Notes under the pieces: model-generated | Databases searched by the model: none | The model's input: only the letters and a program-made list of their open reading frames with translations | Told to the model about the DNA's origin: nothing | Part shown: in pieces, positions 1 to 30,975 of the stretch | Position numbering within the stretch: the first letter of the stretch is position 1 | Layout: every line of letters starts with the position of its first letter | Program-made: the position numbers and the translations under genes | Origin: a virus | Lineage: Duplodnaviria > Caudoviricetes | Direction: 5' to 3' (one strand) | Virus record (IMG/VR): IMGVR_UViG_3300022217_000169 | Coordinates: 6,746 to 70,745 of that record | Length of the DNA: 64,000 nucleotides

Positions 1-380
1 AGATCACCAAATCTATCTTTTAATGATTGAATTACGTTTTTAGGTTTAGCAGCTCTATTATGACATAAATTAAGTTTTATATCCGGCCTTGTTAAAAAAT
101 AAACTTCTTGTTTAAGATCTTTTAATAATCTAAAATATTGTCCTGCCCATATTGAAGTATCTATAGTACTTTGTCCTATTATATTTCCATAAGATACTAT
201 AGTTTCTATGGCGCATTCAATTTTACTATATTCTATACATCTTTTTATAAGTACTTTTATCATATAATCATTATCTAACCAATTTTTTTGTTCTATTTCA
301 AAACAATTATCATCTGATAATTTTAATAATATATATGCACTTTTATATTGACCAGGATCTAAACCTAAAATATATTTCAT
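1..380 (-). CDS. RuvC-like Holliday junction resolvase (3' end outside window)
   Basis: Manual translation from ATG at 380: [16 protein letters not shown]...AIET..., matching the RuvC ILGxDPG catalytic motif; overlaps the sigma gene stop; runs off the window edge. Confidence 0.75.
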
Positions 381-1339
381 GATCCAATTAAAGCCTTATA
401 TCTTACTCTTAATTTACTATTCTTTTTGATACTTCTGGTTATCAATCCTTGAATTTGTCTTATTCTTTCCCTTGTTAATTTAAAACGATTCCCTACTTCT
501 TCAAGTGTTCTTGTACCATTTTCATTTCCTAATCCGGTCCTCATTATATAAATTGCTTTATATTTTTCAGTTATTTTTCTTTCTGCAATCATCCAGTTAA
601 GATGTAATATAATATCTCTAATTAATTTATTTTTTTCAATTTTAGAATCAAAATTTTCAATACTATTATCAGTTAATTTTTCTTGTAAAGTAGTTTGTTT
701 ATTAGAATTTATATTGTTGAAATATATACTTGAAAAACTAACAGTATTACTAGTTCTAATAGAGTTAATAGTATATTCAATTCTTTCTTCAGAAAATTCA
801 GTAAGTTCAGATAATTCTTTTATATTTGGATCTCTATTGTTTTCTTCTCTAAATTTTTTAACTATTTTTATAATTCTATTAAAAGTTTCTAAAGTATGTA
901 CTGGTATTCTTATATTTCTTGATTTATCTTGTATAGCTCTAACAATTCCTTGCCTTATCCACCAAGTAGCATAAGTACTAAATTTATATCCCCTAGACCA
1001 ATCGAATTTTTCAACAGCTTTAATTAATCCAATATTACCTTCTTGAATTAGATCTTGAAAACTAAGCCCTCTATTAATATATTTTTTACCTACATTTATA
1101 ACTAATCTTAGATTAGATTCTATTAAAATTCTTTTAGCTTCTTCATCTCCTGAATCTTTTCTTTTTGTATATTCTATAACTTCTTCATCGGTTAGAAGTC
1201 CATAATCTTTTATACTATCTAAATATTCTTGTATGTCTGTATTTTGTCTTTCTCTTGATTTATTGCATACAGATTCATTACCAGTCATATATCCACAAAA
1301 CCTCTTCGTTTGAAGTATTATTATACTCAGGATTATCAT
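377..1339 (-). CDS. RpoD-like sigma70 family RNA polymerase sigma factor
   Basis: Regions 2.1-3.0: [47 protein letters not shown]; region 4: [19 protein letters not shown]. Confidence 0.95.
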
Positions 1340-5475: not shown

Positions 5476-6015
5476 TTAATATATTATATAAAATTCTTTA
5501 TTTAATTTATTTAAAATATCCAATACTCGAATAACAAATTTTCTTGCATCTGGTCCTGTTCCATTATAAAGTCCTATAGCTTTAATTAAATTATAATTTG
5601 ATATTTTTAATTTATCTCTAAAAATACACAAACCAGCGGAAATATTATATTGTATATTAAATAATTGTTCTTTATTAAAATTTATTCCACAACATTTTAA
5701 AGTATATACTTGCATTAATCCTTTAGCTCCTACAGGTGATACAGCTTTAGGATTAAAATGAGATTCAACTTCCATAATAGCAAGTGTAATTATCCATGGA
5801 ATATTATAATATATTGATTCGTTTATAATAAATAAAGATATGTCCTTTAATTGATTTTCATTCAATGATGGATTTATTTTACTTACATATTTTTCTATTT
5901 TATTATTTAAATTTATTAATTCAAGATTTGATGATTTACATTCTTTAATTAATAAAAATAAACAGAATAAAAGTATTATATAAATAATAACAATTGGTTT
6001 ATTCATTTTTTTCAC
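5476..6015 (-). CDS. lytic transglycosylase (SLT) endolysin with N-terminal membrane anchor
   Basis: AIMEVESHFNPKAVSPVGAKGLMQV and YNG motifs; hydrophobic N-terminus. Confidence 0.88.
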   Translation of the reverse strand: MKKMNKPIVIIYIILLFCLFLLIKECKSSNLELINLNNKIEKYVSKINPSLNENQLKDISLFIINESIYYNIPWIITLAIMEVESHFNPKAVSPVGAKGLMQVYTLKCCGINFNKEQLFNIQYNISAGLCIFRDKLKISNYNLIKAIGLYNGTGPDARKFVIRVLDILNKLNKEFYIIY

Positions 6016-11113: not shown

Positions 11114-11146
11114 GACAAAATCCTCTCTTTAATATTAATGCATATC

Positions 11147-18227: not shown

Positions 18228-18956
18228 TAGCGATTTTTATTCTTTTTTTTCCTTTTATATTTCATATTATATTTCATATTATTCATTATGCTGATTATTG
18301 GTAATGATATTATCAATACTACGCTCACTATTAGGCGTACTAACTCCATGAGTAAACTCCTTATGATCATTACATACCCAATTAAAAAAATCTTCTCCAA
18401 ATAGTTCTTTTATTAATTCATCAGCATTTAAATTCTTCTCCTCATCTTTAAAATTTATTCTTCTATATATTATTTCAATTATTCTTCCTGCATAAAACCC
18501 ATATTTTATTAGATTTAATTTTACAAACTCAGGATAATTTTTTTTTATATTTTTTTCATATATTTTATGTATCTCTAATCTTTGTTTAATCATATAAAAA
18601 AAATATTTTATATTACTTATCTCTTTTTTAGTAAATTTCATTTTTAAACCTATGATATTTATATAAGCAAATTTAATACCAATTAAGGAGCTTCTTCATA
18701 AAAAATAGTTATTGTAATATTAAAAAGATCACTAATATCTACTGATTCTGATTGTAAAATTTCATGAATTATAGTTCCTTCATTTTTTTTAAAAAATTCT
18801 TGTATTTCATCTTTTATATGAATAGCATTGCCACAAAAAACTTTAAGTTTTATTCTTTTATTTATAATGAACATTAGAATTTATTCCTTATATAACAATT
18901 TTTATTTTGTATTTTTTGTTACTATGACATATAATAATATAAAAAAGGTTTATAAA

Positions 18957-19667: not shown

Positions 19668-20075
19668 TTATATTTTGTATTTTCCAGGAGCAAGTAAAGC
19701 TGTTTTATGTTCGATTTCCTTTTCTACTTTTTTTATTGTAGATGGGTTATTTTTGATTTTTTTCTCAACTTTCTTTTTAGGTTTACTGGATTTATTTTTT
19801 GATATCTTCTTAGTGCTTTTAGTTTTACTTAAAACAGGTTGTTCATCTGTTTTATCAATTTTCATTTCGGTACGGATTCTTTCCAATTCAGAAGCAGGTA
19901 TCCTTCTATGTCCGCCTAATGTACGAGTACATTTAATCTTATTGTTTTTTATCCATTGGATAATTGTTGATGAGGTTACACCTAATAATGAAGCCATTTC
20001 ATGAGTCGTTAAACTTCTAGTTATACCAGTTGTATCTTGATTTCTTAACTCTTCTAGCCTATTATTTCTACTCAA
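19668..20075 (-). CDS. MerR-like/excisionase-family HTH DNA-binding protein with Lys-rich tail
   Basis: LTTHEMASLLGVTSSTIIQWIKNNKIKCTRTLGGHRRI; SD AAAGGTGGTG. Confidence 0.85.
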   Translation of the reverse strand: MSRNNRLEELRNQDTTGITRSLTTHEMASLLGVTSSTIIQWIKNNKIKCTRTLGGHRRIPASELERIRTEMKIDKTDEQPVLSKTKSTKKISKNKSSKPKKKVEKKIKNNPSTIKKVEKEIEHKTALLAPGKYKI

Positions 20076-20270: not shown

Positions 20271-20418
20271 TATTATATATCCACCCAATCTAGCTAATAT
20301 TTTATATATCAACCAAAAATTTCAGGGTGGTTATTATATATCTTGATAGTTTAAAAGAAACTAGTTAGGTTAGCGAATTTTATTCGAGCTACCAAGATAA
20401 TATAAATTATAACCTCTC

Positions 20419-20465
20419 AAAAAAGGCTGATAAAAGCGGGGGGGCTTTATTTAAAATCGGCCTTT
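20419..20465 (-). terminator. intrinsic terminator after the 20480-20794 ORF
   Basis: AAAGGCCGAT/ATCAGCCTTT stem followed by T6 on the minus strand. Confidence 0.65.
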
Positions 20466-20479
20466 CCCAGAAATTACAA

Positions 20480-20794
20480 TTACCAATCAAGAAATTTACT
20501 CGTTATTTTCGAGTATACCATATTTTCGAGTATACCATCAATTGCATCTTTAACGTATTCCGCATACATACCGACCATTTTGAGATCCAATTTTTCCGCG
20601 GGGGTAACAGGAGTCCCGGAAGTTGTTCGAGCATCAATAACAGTTTTTATCTTTTTAAATGTAGTGGGAAGAGAACCAATACTCATTTTCCTTTGAGCTT
20701 TTTCAGGTTTTGGTACAGGCTTTAGTATAGACTTTGGTACGGTTGTCTGTTTTTGATCTGACAAAAGAATCACCTCCTTTTTCTTGGAATTCAA
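20480..20794 (-). CDS. hypothetical protein
   Basis: 104-aa ORF; internal SD AAGGAGGTG suggests a slightly later TTG start. Confidence 0.6.
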   Translation of the reverse strand: MNSKKKEVILLSDQKQTTVPKSILKPVPKPEKAQRKMSIGSLPTTFKKIKTVIDARTTSGTPVTPAEKLDLKMVGMYAEYVKDAIDGILENMVYSKITSKFLDW

Positions 20795-20879
20795 AAAGCT
20801 TTTAATAAATCATCTGCTTGCTTCTTTTATTTCTATTATAACCTATATTTTTTATTTATGCAAGGTAATTGCCAAAAAT

Positions 20880-27400: not shown

Positions 27401-28167
27401 GTGATTTGATTAATATCGTCTATTTTTTTCAAGTTCTCTTTGTCACCTAATTGAGTTAAAATACTGTCTATATATTCTCTCCACAATAAAGGATTTTTAA
27501 AATCGTCTTTATATAAAGTAAGTAAAACTTGTTTCATGATAATAAATCCTTATTAAAGTTTGAATAAATTATGGTATAATCTTTTAAATTTCCTTCGTTA
27601 ATAGTAAATAACTTTAGATTTGGATGTATAAATCTTAATTTAAATATTCTTTCTTTCGCATCTTGTATCATAGTTGAAAGCTTATTTCTACCATCTAAGA
27701 TAAAAACTCCGTCACTACCACATAACTCTACTATATGATCTTTTAAATTTCTTGTATAGAATTGTACGTAAAATTTCATAATAATAGCCTCTATATTGTG
27801 TATCGATAATACGCGGTATTGCATACTATTTGATATAACTTAAGGTATTCTTCTAATGTGTTTAAAGCTCCATTATATCTCTTATATTCAAGGAAATTAG
27901 ATGTCCATTTTACATATTTTGCTTCTCTATAATATGTATCTTCTATAGTATGTAAATTGTAAGATTTAAAAAGTTCATTCAACTTATTTATGGTTTTTTT
28001 ACTAAAGTTGTACATAATTAGTACTCCTATATAAGTTGTATCTTTTAAGTGTCTTTTAAGCTTGTTTAAGTCATTACACAGTTTCAATATTTTACGTCTC
28101 TTTGTGTGATAATTTGTATTGTTTTTTGATTATAATTTCCGATTATCATACATTTACTTAAGTTATG

Positions 28168-28185
28168 TTGCAATGTATATGCCAA
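28168..28185 (-). promoter_or_regulatory. sigma54-type -24/-12 promoter
   Basis: TTGGCATATACATTGCAA, exact GG-N10-GC spacing, upstream of the small-gene cluster. Confidence 0.65.
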
Positions 28186-28247
28186 ATAACTAATATTAAT
28201 ATAAATGATTGATTATAAAGAGAGTACATGTAATTAAGAGAATACAA

Positions 28248-28346
28248 CTGTTAGTATCTATTAACAGGGGTATTAAGTCAATGATAAATGATTACAATAA
28301 TATAAGGGTGTTAATAAATAATATCACTGTTAATTAAATATAACAG
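28248..28346. promoter_or_regulatory. paired palindromic operators CTGTTA-N8-TAACAG
   Basis: Perfect copies at 28248-28267 and 28327-28346; imperfect copy at 28308-28327. Confidence 0.7.
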
Positions 28347-28623
28347 TCATAATTCCAAATGATTTTTTTACTGCTATTATATCTATATTCTAATAGTGTT
28401 TACACGAATTGATAGGTATACCGCCATAAAAAACTTTTTTTGACATAATATACGTTAATATATTCCATGCTTTGAAATGGTCCATATTTTCGATATAAAA
28501 GCACATACCTATATGGCATTGATATTGCAGTGATTATAGAGGGTTTTTTTCTGGTATATATATTGCTATATGCAAGGAATGCCATGCTATATACAATTAA
28601 TATGCCTAATAGGGTAGGGTAAT

Positions 28624-28657
28624 AAAAAAGCGGAGTATAATTTAATATACTCCGCTT
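28624..28657 (-). terminator. intrinsic terminator
   Basis: AAGCGGAGTATA/TATACTCCGCTT stem with T-run on the minus strand, after ORF 28679-28876. Confidence 0.8.
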
Positions 28658-28899
28658 ATAATATATATTGTGATATTTTTAATAAATTTCTCCTTCATGA
28701 TACCACTTTTTAAAGTCTTCATACCATTTCTTAATTTTCTTTTTTAGTATACTTACTTTTTTTGAATAAAACAATATCTCTCCACGATAATAAGCATAAT
28801 ACAACTTCTTTTTACTATTATAACAAATAGTAATTTCACTCATTTTAAATTCCCTATATAATGTATAAGTAGTCATAATAAATACTTCATTAAGTTTAA

Positions 28900-29037
28900 T
28901 TAGAAGATGTTAATACTTACGTTCCATGAAGGTGATAAGGTCTCTATCATGTTAGTATAACCTTTGATGTTTTTTACGATACCATTGTAAGTCATAATTA
29001 CTGCTAATGTAATTGATAATGTAATTAAGTAACTCAT
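28900..29037 (-). CDS. 45-aa single-TM peptide
   Basis: MSYLITLSITLAVIMTYNGIVKN...; SD AAGGAG; directly behind a sigma54-type promoter. Confidence 0.55.
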   Translation of the reverse strand: MSYLITLSITLAVIMTYNGIVKNIKGYTNMIETLSPSWNVSINIF

Positions 29038-29078
29038 TTTCTTTCTCCTTTTTAATGTTTGCGTTATACTAATATATA

Positions 29079-29096
29079 TTGCATTCTACATGCCAA
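29079..29096 (-). promoter_or_regulatory. sigma54-type -24/-12 promoter
   Basis: TTGGCATGTAGAATGCAA, GG-N10-GC. Confidence 0.6.
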
Positions 29097-29158
29097 CATA
29101 GGTATAACATAAAATCAATACTTTAGAGGATATAGGTATGTTACATATTCGATACTAA

Positions 29159-29212
29159 TTACAATGATGTAATGACGATTACAATAATGTAATTTTGATT
29201 GCAATAATGTAA
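29159..29212. repeat. three palindromic TTACA-N4-TGTAA sites at 20-bp period
   Basis: 29159-29172, 29179-29192, 29199-29212 (third has TTGCA). Confidence 0.8.
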
Positions 29213-30975
29213 TGATATGTATATGACACAAGGTATAATATAAATATGATGATATGATGTATAAGAGAGTGCTTAAGTTGATTACATATATAATAAGATG
29301 ATATGATTTAAAGAGCAGGTTTAAATAGGATGATATTTAACGTCATACCACTAATAAGGTTTAAATTTTTTTCATGTTAATATCGATAAGATATATATAA
29401 CTAAGTTAGTTTCAAGAAGAGTTAAAAGTTTTCACATTTTTTTACTTTTAATATGCAAGTGCTACTACATGTGAAACGATATTCATAGTGTATTTGAGTG
29501 AGTAGAACTTACGTGCAAAAATGATGTATTTCCGTGTTTTTTTTCCGTACATTATGTTGATTTCGTGCAGATACATATATGCATATTTTGTACTGAGTTG
29601 AAGATCGTTGATATTAGTGCTTCTATGAGTGACACGATTTTCCTTGCGTAAAAGGGTCCCAATCCTCTATATGCGGATGCCGCACCCGGTTGTTAGACTA
29701 CTATACATATCTGGAATAGAACTATTCACAGAATAGAACCATTCATACTATACAAAAAATAATAAAAAAACTACCTAATATATCTAATAAATTTCCAATC
29801 TAGTGAATTTTCAATATAACTACATCATCCGACATAATAATCCCTCGCAAAAAATACAATAAAAAATCACAAAAGACTACCATATATATCTTTCAAAATC
29901 TCGATAAAATCTCGATAAAATCTCAACATGATTGCAAAAAAAATTCTAAAAAAATTAATCATTAAGCGAAAGTTATAATTCATTATAAACTTTTTGTAAT
30001 TCTTCTATTAATATTTTAATATAATTTTTTGTAAGAAATATAATACTAGGTTTTTCTTTGTCTCCTTGACAAATTAATAAATTCTTACCAATAACTTTAT
30101 TATTAGATTTTCTTATTATATGCATTATCTCTAACCATGTTAAATCTAAATCTTCTATATGTATTTTTTCAACTATTTTACTGTCAAAGTTAGACATTTC
30201 TTCTCCTAAAGAATTATAAAAATTTAAAAGTCTATAACAAATCACATATAATGCTTATTATCAAGCCATTGAAGATAACAAGCAGAATAAATTATAAGCT
30301 CAATCAAATAACATAATAAACCATATTTTATTAATAAATTATATTTTAAAAATTGACCTATAATACATATTAAAAGACCTATCATAAAAATCCTCTTAAA
30401 AAATTAAAAAAAATCCTAATGTGTGATTATATCTTCCCTTTTTATAGCTTTATATTTTTTGTATTTAATATAAAACATTGTAGGCCAAAAAAATTCTACT
30501 AAAAATTTTGCAAAAAGCATTAAGATTTTAAACTATCTAATTCATTTTCAATTTTATAACAAAGTTTATTATTCTGATATCCATCTAAATATTCTTCTAC
30601 TTCATTATATATAAATTCTAATAAATCTATAACATCATTAACTTTAACATAGTCTCCTTTTTCCACTACTCCCATATCATTATAAGCCGTACAATATTCA
30701 TATCTTTTCATTTAATTACATAATCTCCTAAAAAATTTTAAAAATTATAAAAAGACATTCTAACATATCTGCAATAATAACATCACATATAAATAATGCT
30801 TTATCTCCTATTTTCATTCTTGTCTCAAAAAAAAATTAAAAAATTTTTAATAGTAATTGATTGAAATAAAGTAAATAAATTGTTAAACAGGAAGCTAATA
30901 TTATTCCAAGAAGAAAAACCAATATAGCAATCAAGTAAAGTTTCATATTTAAAATCCTTTAAATTAAACATTTAT

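Follow-up and report, generated by a model that had tools for sequence, protein, structure and literature searches.

The genome analysed here is that of an uncultured, AT-rich phage of 70.7 kb, of which a 64,000-nucleotide (64-kb) stretch served as the window for inspection. A very AT-rich region of this window holds four bipartite boxes of the sigma-54 type, in which the GG and the GC doublet are separated by exactly 10 nt (GG-N10-GC; consensus TGGCAY-N5-TTGCW). The S1 box (28169-28184, minus strand; TTGGCAT-N5-TTGCA) and the S3 box (28514-28529, plus strand) match this consensus without a mismatch, and the S2 box (29080-29095, minus strand; TTGGCAT-N5-ATGCA) and the S4 box (28552-28567, plus strand; TGGTAT-N5-TTGCT) carry one mismatch each. 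A first-pass annotation of this DNA had described four such boxes, and all four were found at positions that agree within 1 nt; its statement that S1 and S2 lie on the minus strand and face genes is likewise borne out by the orientation of the boxes and by the next ORFs. Two additional boxes with one mismatch each, both intergenic, gene-facing and on the minus strand, lie outside the 28140-29220 range considered in that annotation. One of these (20859-20874; TTGGCAA-N5-TTGCA) precedes a 104-aa gene; in the other (18666-18681; TTGGTAT-N5-TTGCT) the TGC stops 25 nt short of the ATG that opens a 120-aa gene. Thus, S1, S2 and the boxes at 18666 and 20859 face genes, and S3 and S4 do not.

The boxes are enriched over shuffled background, the kind of comparison that the earlier annotation had proposed. 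The relaxed pattern TGGYA-N7-TGC occurs nine times in the 64-kb window against 1.4 expected, with none of 100 shuffles reaching nine, and the whole genome contains seven sites with at most one mismatch to TGGCAY-N5-TTGCW against 1.16 expected (0 of 300 shuffles), two of them perfect (0.12 expected). Six of these seven genome sites fall in four gene-free stretches. When the spacing was varied from N3 to N12, enrichment was seen only at the sigma-54 spacing, and the same was true of the intergenic enrichment. Two AT-rich distant relatives (45 and 53 kb), which served as a control, contain no boxes at all. The boxes fit [T/A]TGGCAT-N5-TTGC[T/A], the form seen at the bacterial nitrogen promoters recovered in this analysis, and they also fit TTGGCAT-N5-TTGCT, the sigma-54 consensus for Clostridiales (PMC6615313). 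Extended -10 and MotA-box-like readings of the boxes were dropped since the hexamers after the TGC lack the A2 and T6 of a -10 element, and the phage's own RpoD-like sigma factor (regions 2-4), taken as the reader of the boxes, cannot account for a two-part motif whose pitch is 11 bp.

The S2 box is followed by a short, putative transcription unit. Its predicted start (~29069) lies 32 nt upstream of the ATG at 29037, which opens a minus-strand cassette (28679-29037) consisting of a 45-aa gene (28900-29037) with a hydrophobic N-terminus and a 65-aa gene (28679-28876). A hairpin with a 12-bp stem (28628-28657), which is a strong intrinsic terminator on the minus strand and a weaker one on the plus strand, ends the cassette. 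Neither protein gave a family match, and a function search for the 65-aa protein found nothing. Upstream of the box is an array of three ATTACA-N4-TGTAAT sites (29158-29213; sites at 29158, 29178 and 29198) with a 20-bp period, the third of which carries ATTGCA; this is the array that the first-pass annotation gave as three TTACA-N4-TGTAA palindromes. Counted upstream from the GG, the site centres are 72, 92 and 112 bp away, and a match to the IHF consensus (WATCAA-N4-TTR; 29113-29125, plus strand) lies between the array and the box, 18-30 bp upstream of the latter.

The S1 box repeats this layout. Its predicted start is at ~28158, and its first gene begins with an ATG at 28015 that is served by an AGGAG ribosome-binding site. 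The strong terminator precedes S1, and the genes after S1 therefore need a new promoter. Two CTGTTA-N8-TAACAG palindromes (28248-28267 and 28327-28346), both of them perfect as had been claimed, lie between the divergent S1 and S3; their 79-bp spacing places them on opposite helix faces. An IHF-consensus match (28202-28214, minus strand) is found between the palindromes and S1, again 18-30 bp from the box. The order is therefore identical at S1 and S2, with palindromes 60-140 bp upstream, an IHF-consensus match, the box and then genes. Of only 13 IHF-consensus matches in the 64 kb, one in the S1 spacer and one in the S2 spacer have the same offset from the box, and a check of the whole genome found both palindrome types only in the S1/S2 region. 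The S1 palindrome has the form TGT-N12-ACA and so resembles the upstream sites of Clostridiales sigma-54 regulons, which are several per promoter, often TGT-N10-12-ACA and placed 100-250 bp upstream (PMC6615313); neither phage palindrome matches an entry among the catalogued activator sites covered here. The S1 palindrome was neither in excess nor arranged in tandem across 401 genomes of one Clostridia order. It was absent from five candidate genomes that carry rpoN and from the bacterial nitrogen loci, viral contigs contained no tandem copies of it, and its 22 matches in metagenomes lie upstream of unrelated genes from which no regulon emerges.

To the other side of the S1 palindromes, the plus-strand boxes S3 and S4 have no ORF downstream and could at most produce an RNA of ~80-120 nt ending at the 28628-28657 hairpin; a comparison with known RNAs in Rfam gave no credible match. 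S4 forms one arm of an inverted repeat or hairpin (28553-28606), the other arm of which carries degenerate opposed boxes on the minus strand, namely 28592-28607 with TTGT and 28572-28585 with a spacer that is 2 nt too short. S3 may share the S1 palindrome enhancer divergently.

The S2 array could be placed in a bacterial regulon. A search of 185,579 species with the double ATTACA array (24 fixed bases) returned one MAG with two loci, both of which have an outward-facing sigma-54 box 50-120 bp from the array. This MAG encodes rpoN and 59 activator genes and has at least nine loci with the enhancer-box layout. The composite pattern of ATTACA sites plus a sigma-54 box was found at at least 120 bacterial loci, and among the loci listed the genes downstream include those for AmtB (15), type III glutamine synthetase (GSIII; 10), GlnD (7) and P-II (7). 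Such promoters of GSIII, amtB, glnK and glnD were seen in Desulfobacterota, Verrucomicrobiota/Lentisphaerota, Planctomycetota and Deferribacterota. The base before the GG, which the pattern leaves free, is T in 61 of the 119 loci listed and in 28 of the 29 nitrogen loci. In these 29 loci the site centres lie mostly between -66 and -128 from the GG, and the phage values of -72, -92 and -112 are inside this range. Candidate bacteria with the same enhancer do encode rpoN. In bacteria, across many phyla, the ATTACA-N4-TGTAAT element of the S2 array thus serves a nitrogen regulon as the upstream activator site of its sigma-54 promoters. In viral contigs the combination of ATTACA sites and a box was seen in one small contig family of 40% GC with a single site, which was unconvincing. 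The earlier annotation had suggested matching the palindromes to known activator regulons, and this succeeded for the S2 array and failed for the S1 palindromes.

The glnAp2 promoter with its activator NtrC is the type case of the enhancer-dependent sigma-54 nitrogen promoters, and S2 resembles promoters of this class in box sequence and spacing, enhancer motif, copy number, distance and an AT-rich or IHF-type spacer. It differs from them in that its -12 element is ATGC, whereas 27 of the 29 bacterial nitrogen promoters have TTGC, and in that its sites are 20 bp apart, whereas those of most bacterial loci are 29-32 bp apart, a 20-bp spacing being found in one MAG. It also differs in belonging to a virus without sigma-54 or an activator and in having only the 45-aa and 65-aa phage ORFs downstream. 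Since no nitrogen-assimilation genes follow S2, it was filed as a promoter that would work in the manner of an NtrC-dependent one but lies outside the host regulon proper.

Neither a sigma-54 gene nor an activator domain was found in the phage, which encodes the RpoD-like sigma factor mentioned above and has early promoters that are near-consensus for sigma-70. No integrase was seen. A small neighbouring gene has only distant homologues, and syntenic relatives were not found; the loci retrieved with the nucleotidyltransferase and with a 693-aa protein were rejected as evidence of conservation, as they are at most 66% identical, not syntenic and without boxes. The hints to the host conflict: a DnaD-like initiator and best matches in Firmicutes phages point one way, but a diderm host is suggested by an SLT lysin together with the IHF-type sites. 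A host search by DNA similarity matched only the sigma gene, and AT-rich Bacilli/Tenericutes MAGs that gave matches lack rpoN and were set aside as chance.

From the motifs, enrichment and geometry observed in the phage and the regulon identity that the S2 enhancer has in bacteria, we infer, with somewhat better than even confidence, that the host's sigma-54 RNA polymerase reads S2 and S1 as enhancer-dependent promoters and that the activator of S2 is of the NtrC type; binding, host identity and activity in infection belong to the deduced part of this reading. In such a mechanism the sigma-54 holoenzyme would form a closed complex at the -24/-12 box. An activator ATPase from the host would bind the palindromes 60-140 bp upstream, and the spacer DNA would bend, with the IHF-type site at its fixed offset. 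The activator would then open the promoter, and transcription would begin ~12 nt past the GC. At S2 the activator would be the NtrC-type nitrogen regulator, and the terminator-closed two-gene cassette would be expressed under nitrogen shortage; judged from its promoter, the phage probably turns on the S2 genes when its host is short of nitrogen. S1 is, by its layout, probably a second enhancer-dependent promoter heading the next run of small genes, and it would answer to a second activator other than that of S2. The claim of the first-pass annotation that sigma-54 promoters and enhancers wire these genes to a host activator thus stands best for S2, with an array like that of bacterial nitrogen promoters at the same distance; it is weakened at S1 by palindromes that matched no regulon and by overlap with a plausible sigma-70 promoter, and S3 and S4 face no ORF.

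A broader picture, which we put forward tentatively and hold a little short of an even chance, is that of a virulent-looking phage without its own sigma factor of this type or activator that has plugged a small cassette into the NtrC/sigma-54 nitrogen-starvation circuit of its host and has wired a further block of genes to another circuit that depends on an enhancer, so that infection would be tuned to the nutrient status of the host.

The boxes could instead be docking or decoy sites at which the sigma-54 holoenzyme and its activator are bound without driving genes, so that host polymerase and NtrC are parked or titrated. We consider this unlikely. Boxes S3 and S4 with no ORF ahead, the head-on arrangement of S4 and the degenerate opposed boxes within a repeat that can form a hairpin, and the lack of a phage-encoded activator would all suit such a role, but S1, S2 and the boxes at 18666 and 20859 point at the next gene from promoter-like distances, and S2 shows the complete arrangement seen at functional nitrogen promoters of bacteria and is followed by genes and a terminator. 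Slightly less likely still is that the elements are operators of phage-encoded DNA-binding proteins and resemble sigma-54 and NtrC sites by coincidence. The phage does encode an HTH/MerR-like protein (19668-20075) and many small proteins without assigned function, a further motif, ATACCTAT, clusters with the boxes and is unexplained, and the two distant relatives lack boxes. Against this, chance would have to supply an 11-base consensus with exact spacing and, suitably placed, a 12-base enhancer motif as well. Repressor operators overlap the promoter elements, but these palindromes stand 60-140 bp away from the boxes. No regulator gene is adjacent, and no HTH gene lies within 8 kb of the palindromes; a CI/Cro-type operator would have a palindrome overlapping the hexamers and its regulator next door, and neither was seen. 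Composites of ATACCTAT and a box in viral contigs gave four matches, in unrelated contigs of 39-43% GC, and were taken as chance. Least probable of the three, at long odds, are ordinary sigma-70 promoters with the TTGCA of the box as -35 and the upstream TGGCA incidental or an upstream contact: TTGCAA-17-TATGAT overlaps S1, the 20859 box doubles as the consensus promoter TTGCAT-17-TATAAT, and the phage has its sigma-70 early promoters and sigma factor, but none of S2, S3 and S4 is followed by a suitably spaced -10, the hexamer pair (17±1 bp) is absent at 18666 too, the ATG lies 25-26 nt past the TGC at 18666 and at a box at 11139, which leaves too little space for a -35/-10 promoter reusing the box plus a leader, and a -10-like hexamer in two of six cases is near chance at 27% GC, and sigma-70-like sites occur in the region just as often as expected from shuffles.

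Sigma-70-type promoters, phage sigma factors or phage polymerases are considered to govern nearly all of phage gene timing. Cyanophage promoters carry sites for host nutrient regulators, i.e., NtcA and PhoB boxes, and like the proposed host-read S2 they place phage genes under a host regulator of nitrogen or phosphate status; unlike S2, they are sigma-70-type promoters with CRP-family or OmpR-family activators and do not use sigma-54 with an enhancer. Phage morons are promoter-gene-terminator cassettes with sigma-70 promoters, mostly described in temperate phages. The S2 unit is similarly complete in itself, from its own putative promoter through the two small genes to the terminator, but its box is of the sigma-54 type, and it sits in a phage in which no integrase was seen. 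The first-pass annotation called the arrangement unusual for phages, which is fair, yet a precedent exists: phage use of sigma-54 has been called rare (PMC5053324), with Pseudomonas phage YuA as the example. YuA depends on host sigma-54 and has a sigma-54-like promoter with a mapped start and a promoter-trap signal (Ceyssens et al., 2008, as cited in PMC5053324 and PMC10914365). Like YuA, whose programme uses host sigma-54, the present phage would draw on that factor, but YuA, a siphovirus that infects a GC-rich proteobacterium, is unrelated to it, and the descriptions cited here name no enhancer or activator for YuA.

Because the enhancer can now be named, a vague sigma-54-like motif becomes the prediction that the S2 cassette is induced by nitrogen limitation via host NtrC. 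If this is true, the phage would read host physiology through an ATP-dependent, tight off/on switch, its infection would be tuned to host nutrients by a route almost unstudied in phages, and the enhancer, bend site and box would make up a compact natural part for conditional expression. As a by-product, the ATTACA-N4-TGTAAT nitrogen enhancer shared across phyla is useful for regulon annotation and for predicting the host of the phage.

The virus record is 70,745 bp long (27% GC; window, bases 6746-70745), with a CheckV completeness of about 73%. The phage is myovirus-like: from about 40.5 kb onwards the plus strand carries genes for portal, protease, major head, sheath, tape measure and baseplate proteins, and a long block on the minus strand, running from about 39.3 kb to position 1, combines replication genes with numerous small ones. 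The gene at 377-1339 (minus strand) encodes an RpoD-like sigma factor (regions 2, 3 and 4) that shares 40-44% identity with the primary sigma factors of Thermotogota, Clostridia and Patescibacteria; neither a sigma-54 DNA-binding domain nor a sigma-54 activator domain was found in the phage genes. A 179-aa SLT-domain transglycosylase (5476-6015, minus strand) is the likely endolysin, and the only phages with a match to it infect Gram-negative bacteria, a hint of a diderm host; the hints on host identity as a whole point in conflicting directions. No syntenic relatives of the phage were found.

The four sigma-54-type boxes S1-S4 lie where the small-gene block has no genes (28088-28678 and 29038-29447), and the placement of these boxes, both CTGTTA-N8-TAACAG palindromes and all three ATTACA-N4-TGTAAT sites by the first-pass annotation was confirmed. 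The boxes and palindromes are not due to chance. Sigma-54-like sites were enriched over shuffled background across the whole genome, with seven sites at one mismatch or fewer to TGGCAY-N5-TTGCW vs 1.16 expected (0/300 shuffles) and two perfect sites vs 0.12 expected; within the window, TGGYA-N7-TGC was found nine times vs 1.4 expected. When spacers from N3 to N12 were compared, enrichment, including that in intergenic DNA, was limited to the sigma-54 spacing. The boxes were absent from two distant relatives (25% GC). Outside the S1-S4 region, further gene-facing boxes lie on the minus strand at 18666-18681 and 20859-20874, the latter overlapping a consensus sigma-70 promoter. This box and promoter head a second self-contained cassette (20313-20874, minus strand) with a 104-aa gene followed by a GC-rich hairpin-like stretch at about 20400-20440.

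The S2 cassette comprises, in order, the enhancer sites (29158-29213; centres at -72, -92 and -112 relative to GG), an IHF-consensus match (29113-29125), the box (29080-29095, minus strand), a ribosome-binding site and ATG at 29037, genes of 45 and 65 aa, and a strong terminator hairpin (28657-28628), which precedes S1. Upstream of the enhancer, 29241-29339 holds three copies of a 15-19-nt repeat containing GATGATAT. At S1, the palindromes span 28248-28267 and 28327-28346, an IHF-consensus match covers 28202-28214, and the box occupies 28169-28184 (minus strand); a leader of about 143 nt runs to an ATG at 28015, after which a series of small genes follows. Only 13 IHF-consensus matches occur in the 64-kb window. 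Two of them have an identical offset (18-30 bp) upstream of the box, one at S1 and one at S2, and lie in opposite orientation, a placement with a chance probability of about 2 in 10,000. S3 is a perfect box across the S1 palindromes, on their other side; no ORF was found downstream, and its product would be at most a structured RNA of some 120 nt that stops at the shared hairpin (z = -3.4). S4 forms one arm of a 54-nt inverted repeat with degenerate opposed boxes on the other arm. The 8-mer ATACCTAT/ATAGGTAT occurs 10 times in the window vs 5.2 expected; six copies adjoin boxes (20938, 20978, 28412, 28505, 29098 and 29132), two of them directly abutting the -24 element of S2 and S3, and an exact 12-mer is common to 28503-28514 and 29130-29141.

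Pairs of ATTACA-N4-TGTAAT sites at a distance of 20 bp were sought in 185,579 species, each represented by one genome. A single MAG, G409 (6.5 Mb), matched, at two loci, and both have a sigma-54 box that points outward at a distance of 50 or 120 bp. This MAG encodes rpoN and 59 activator genes, and at least nine of its loci have a box preceded, at 50-130 bp, by one to three of these sites. Enhancer and box also stand before genes for secreted proteins with cohesin domains and with thrombospondin repeats (L193:1920-2903, L194:430-1397). A second pattern, one site followed by a 41-101-nt spacer and GGCAT-N5-WTGC, was found at 120 or more loci in many phyla. Among the matches listed, positions left free in the pattern agree with the sigma-54 consensus (T before GG in 61/119 loci, A or T after TGC in 89/119), and the downstream genes include those for type III glutamine synthetase (10), ammonium transporter (15), GlnD (7) and P-II (7). 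The 29 nitrogen loci among these matches have a box of the form [T/A]TGGCAT-N5-TTGC[T/A], and GG is preceded by T in 28 of them. Most of their enhancer centres fall 66-128 bp upstream of GG, compared with 72, 92 and 112 bp at S2, and a second site usually lies 29-32 bp further upstream. The match of palindromes to an activator regulon, proposed in the first-pass annotation, was obtained for S2, as ATTACA-N4-TGTAAT heads bacterial nitrogen sigma-54 promoters. Because the same site and box head these loci at like distances, the S2 enhancer belongs to the kind serving a nitrogen (NtrC-type) sigma-54 regulon. In MAG G409, the predicted regulon extends past nitrogen genes. From sequence comparison, ATTACA-N4-TGTAAT appears to be a nitrogen enhancer motif shared across phyla, of which we found no description in the literature. 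Loci with the site and a sigma-54 promoter before GSIII, amtB-glnK and glnD (L211-L318, among the matches listed) come from Desulfobacterota, Verrucomicrobiota/Lentisphaerota, Planctomycetota, Deferribacterota and Acidobacteriota.

S1 and S2 are most simply explained as putative sites of enhancer-dependent transcription by the host sigma-54 polymerase; S2 would respond to an NtrC-type nitrogen signal. Were the boxes docking or decoy sites, or the boxes and palindromes operators of phage proteins, part of the observations would be explained, but not the full S2 geometry. Plain sigma-70 promoters likewise explain part, S1 overlapping a fair one, but fail to account for that geometry. Use of sigma-54 by a phage is already known from YuA (PMC5053324; PMC10914365).

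The S1 palindrome belongs to the TGT-N12-ACA class, which is common among activator sites (PMC6615313). The corresponding match to an activator regulon failed here, since no regulon could be tied to CTGTTA-N8-TAACAG. The TnrA/GlnR box of Firmicutes is TGTNA-N7-TNACA; the S1 palindrome (28248-28346), as TGTTA-N8-TAACA, is one base longer, and the likeness may be a coincidence.
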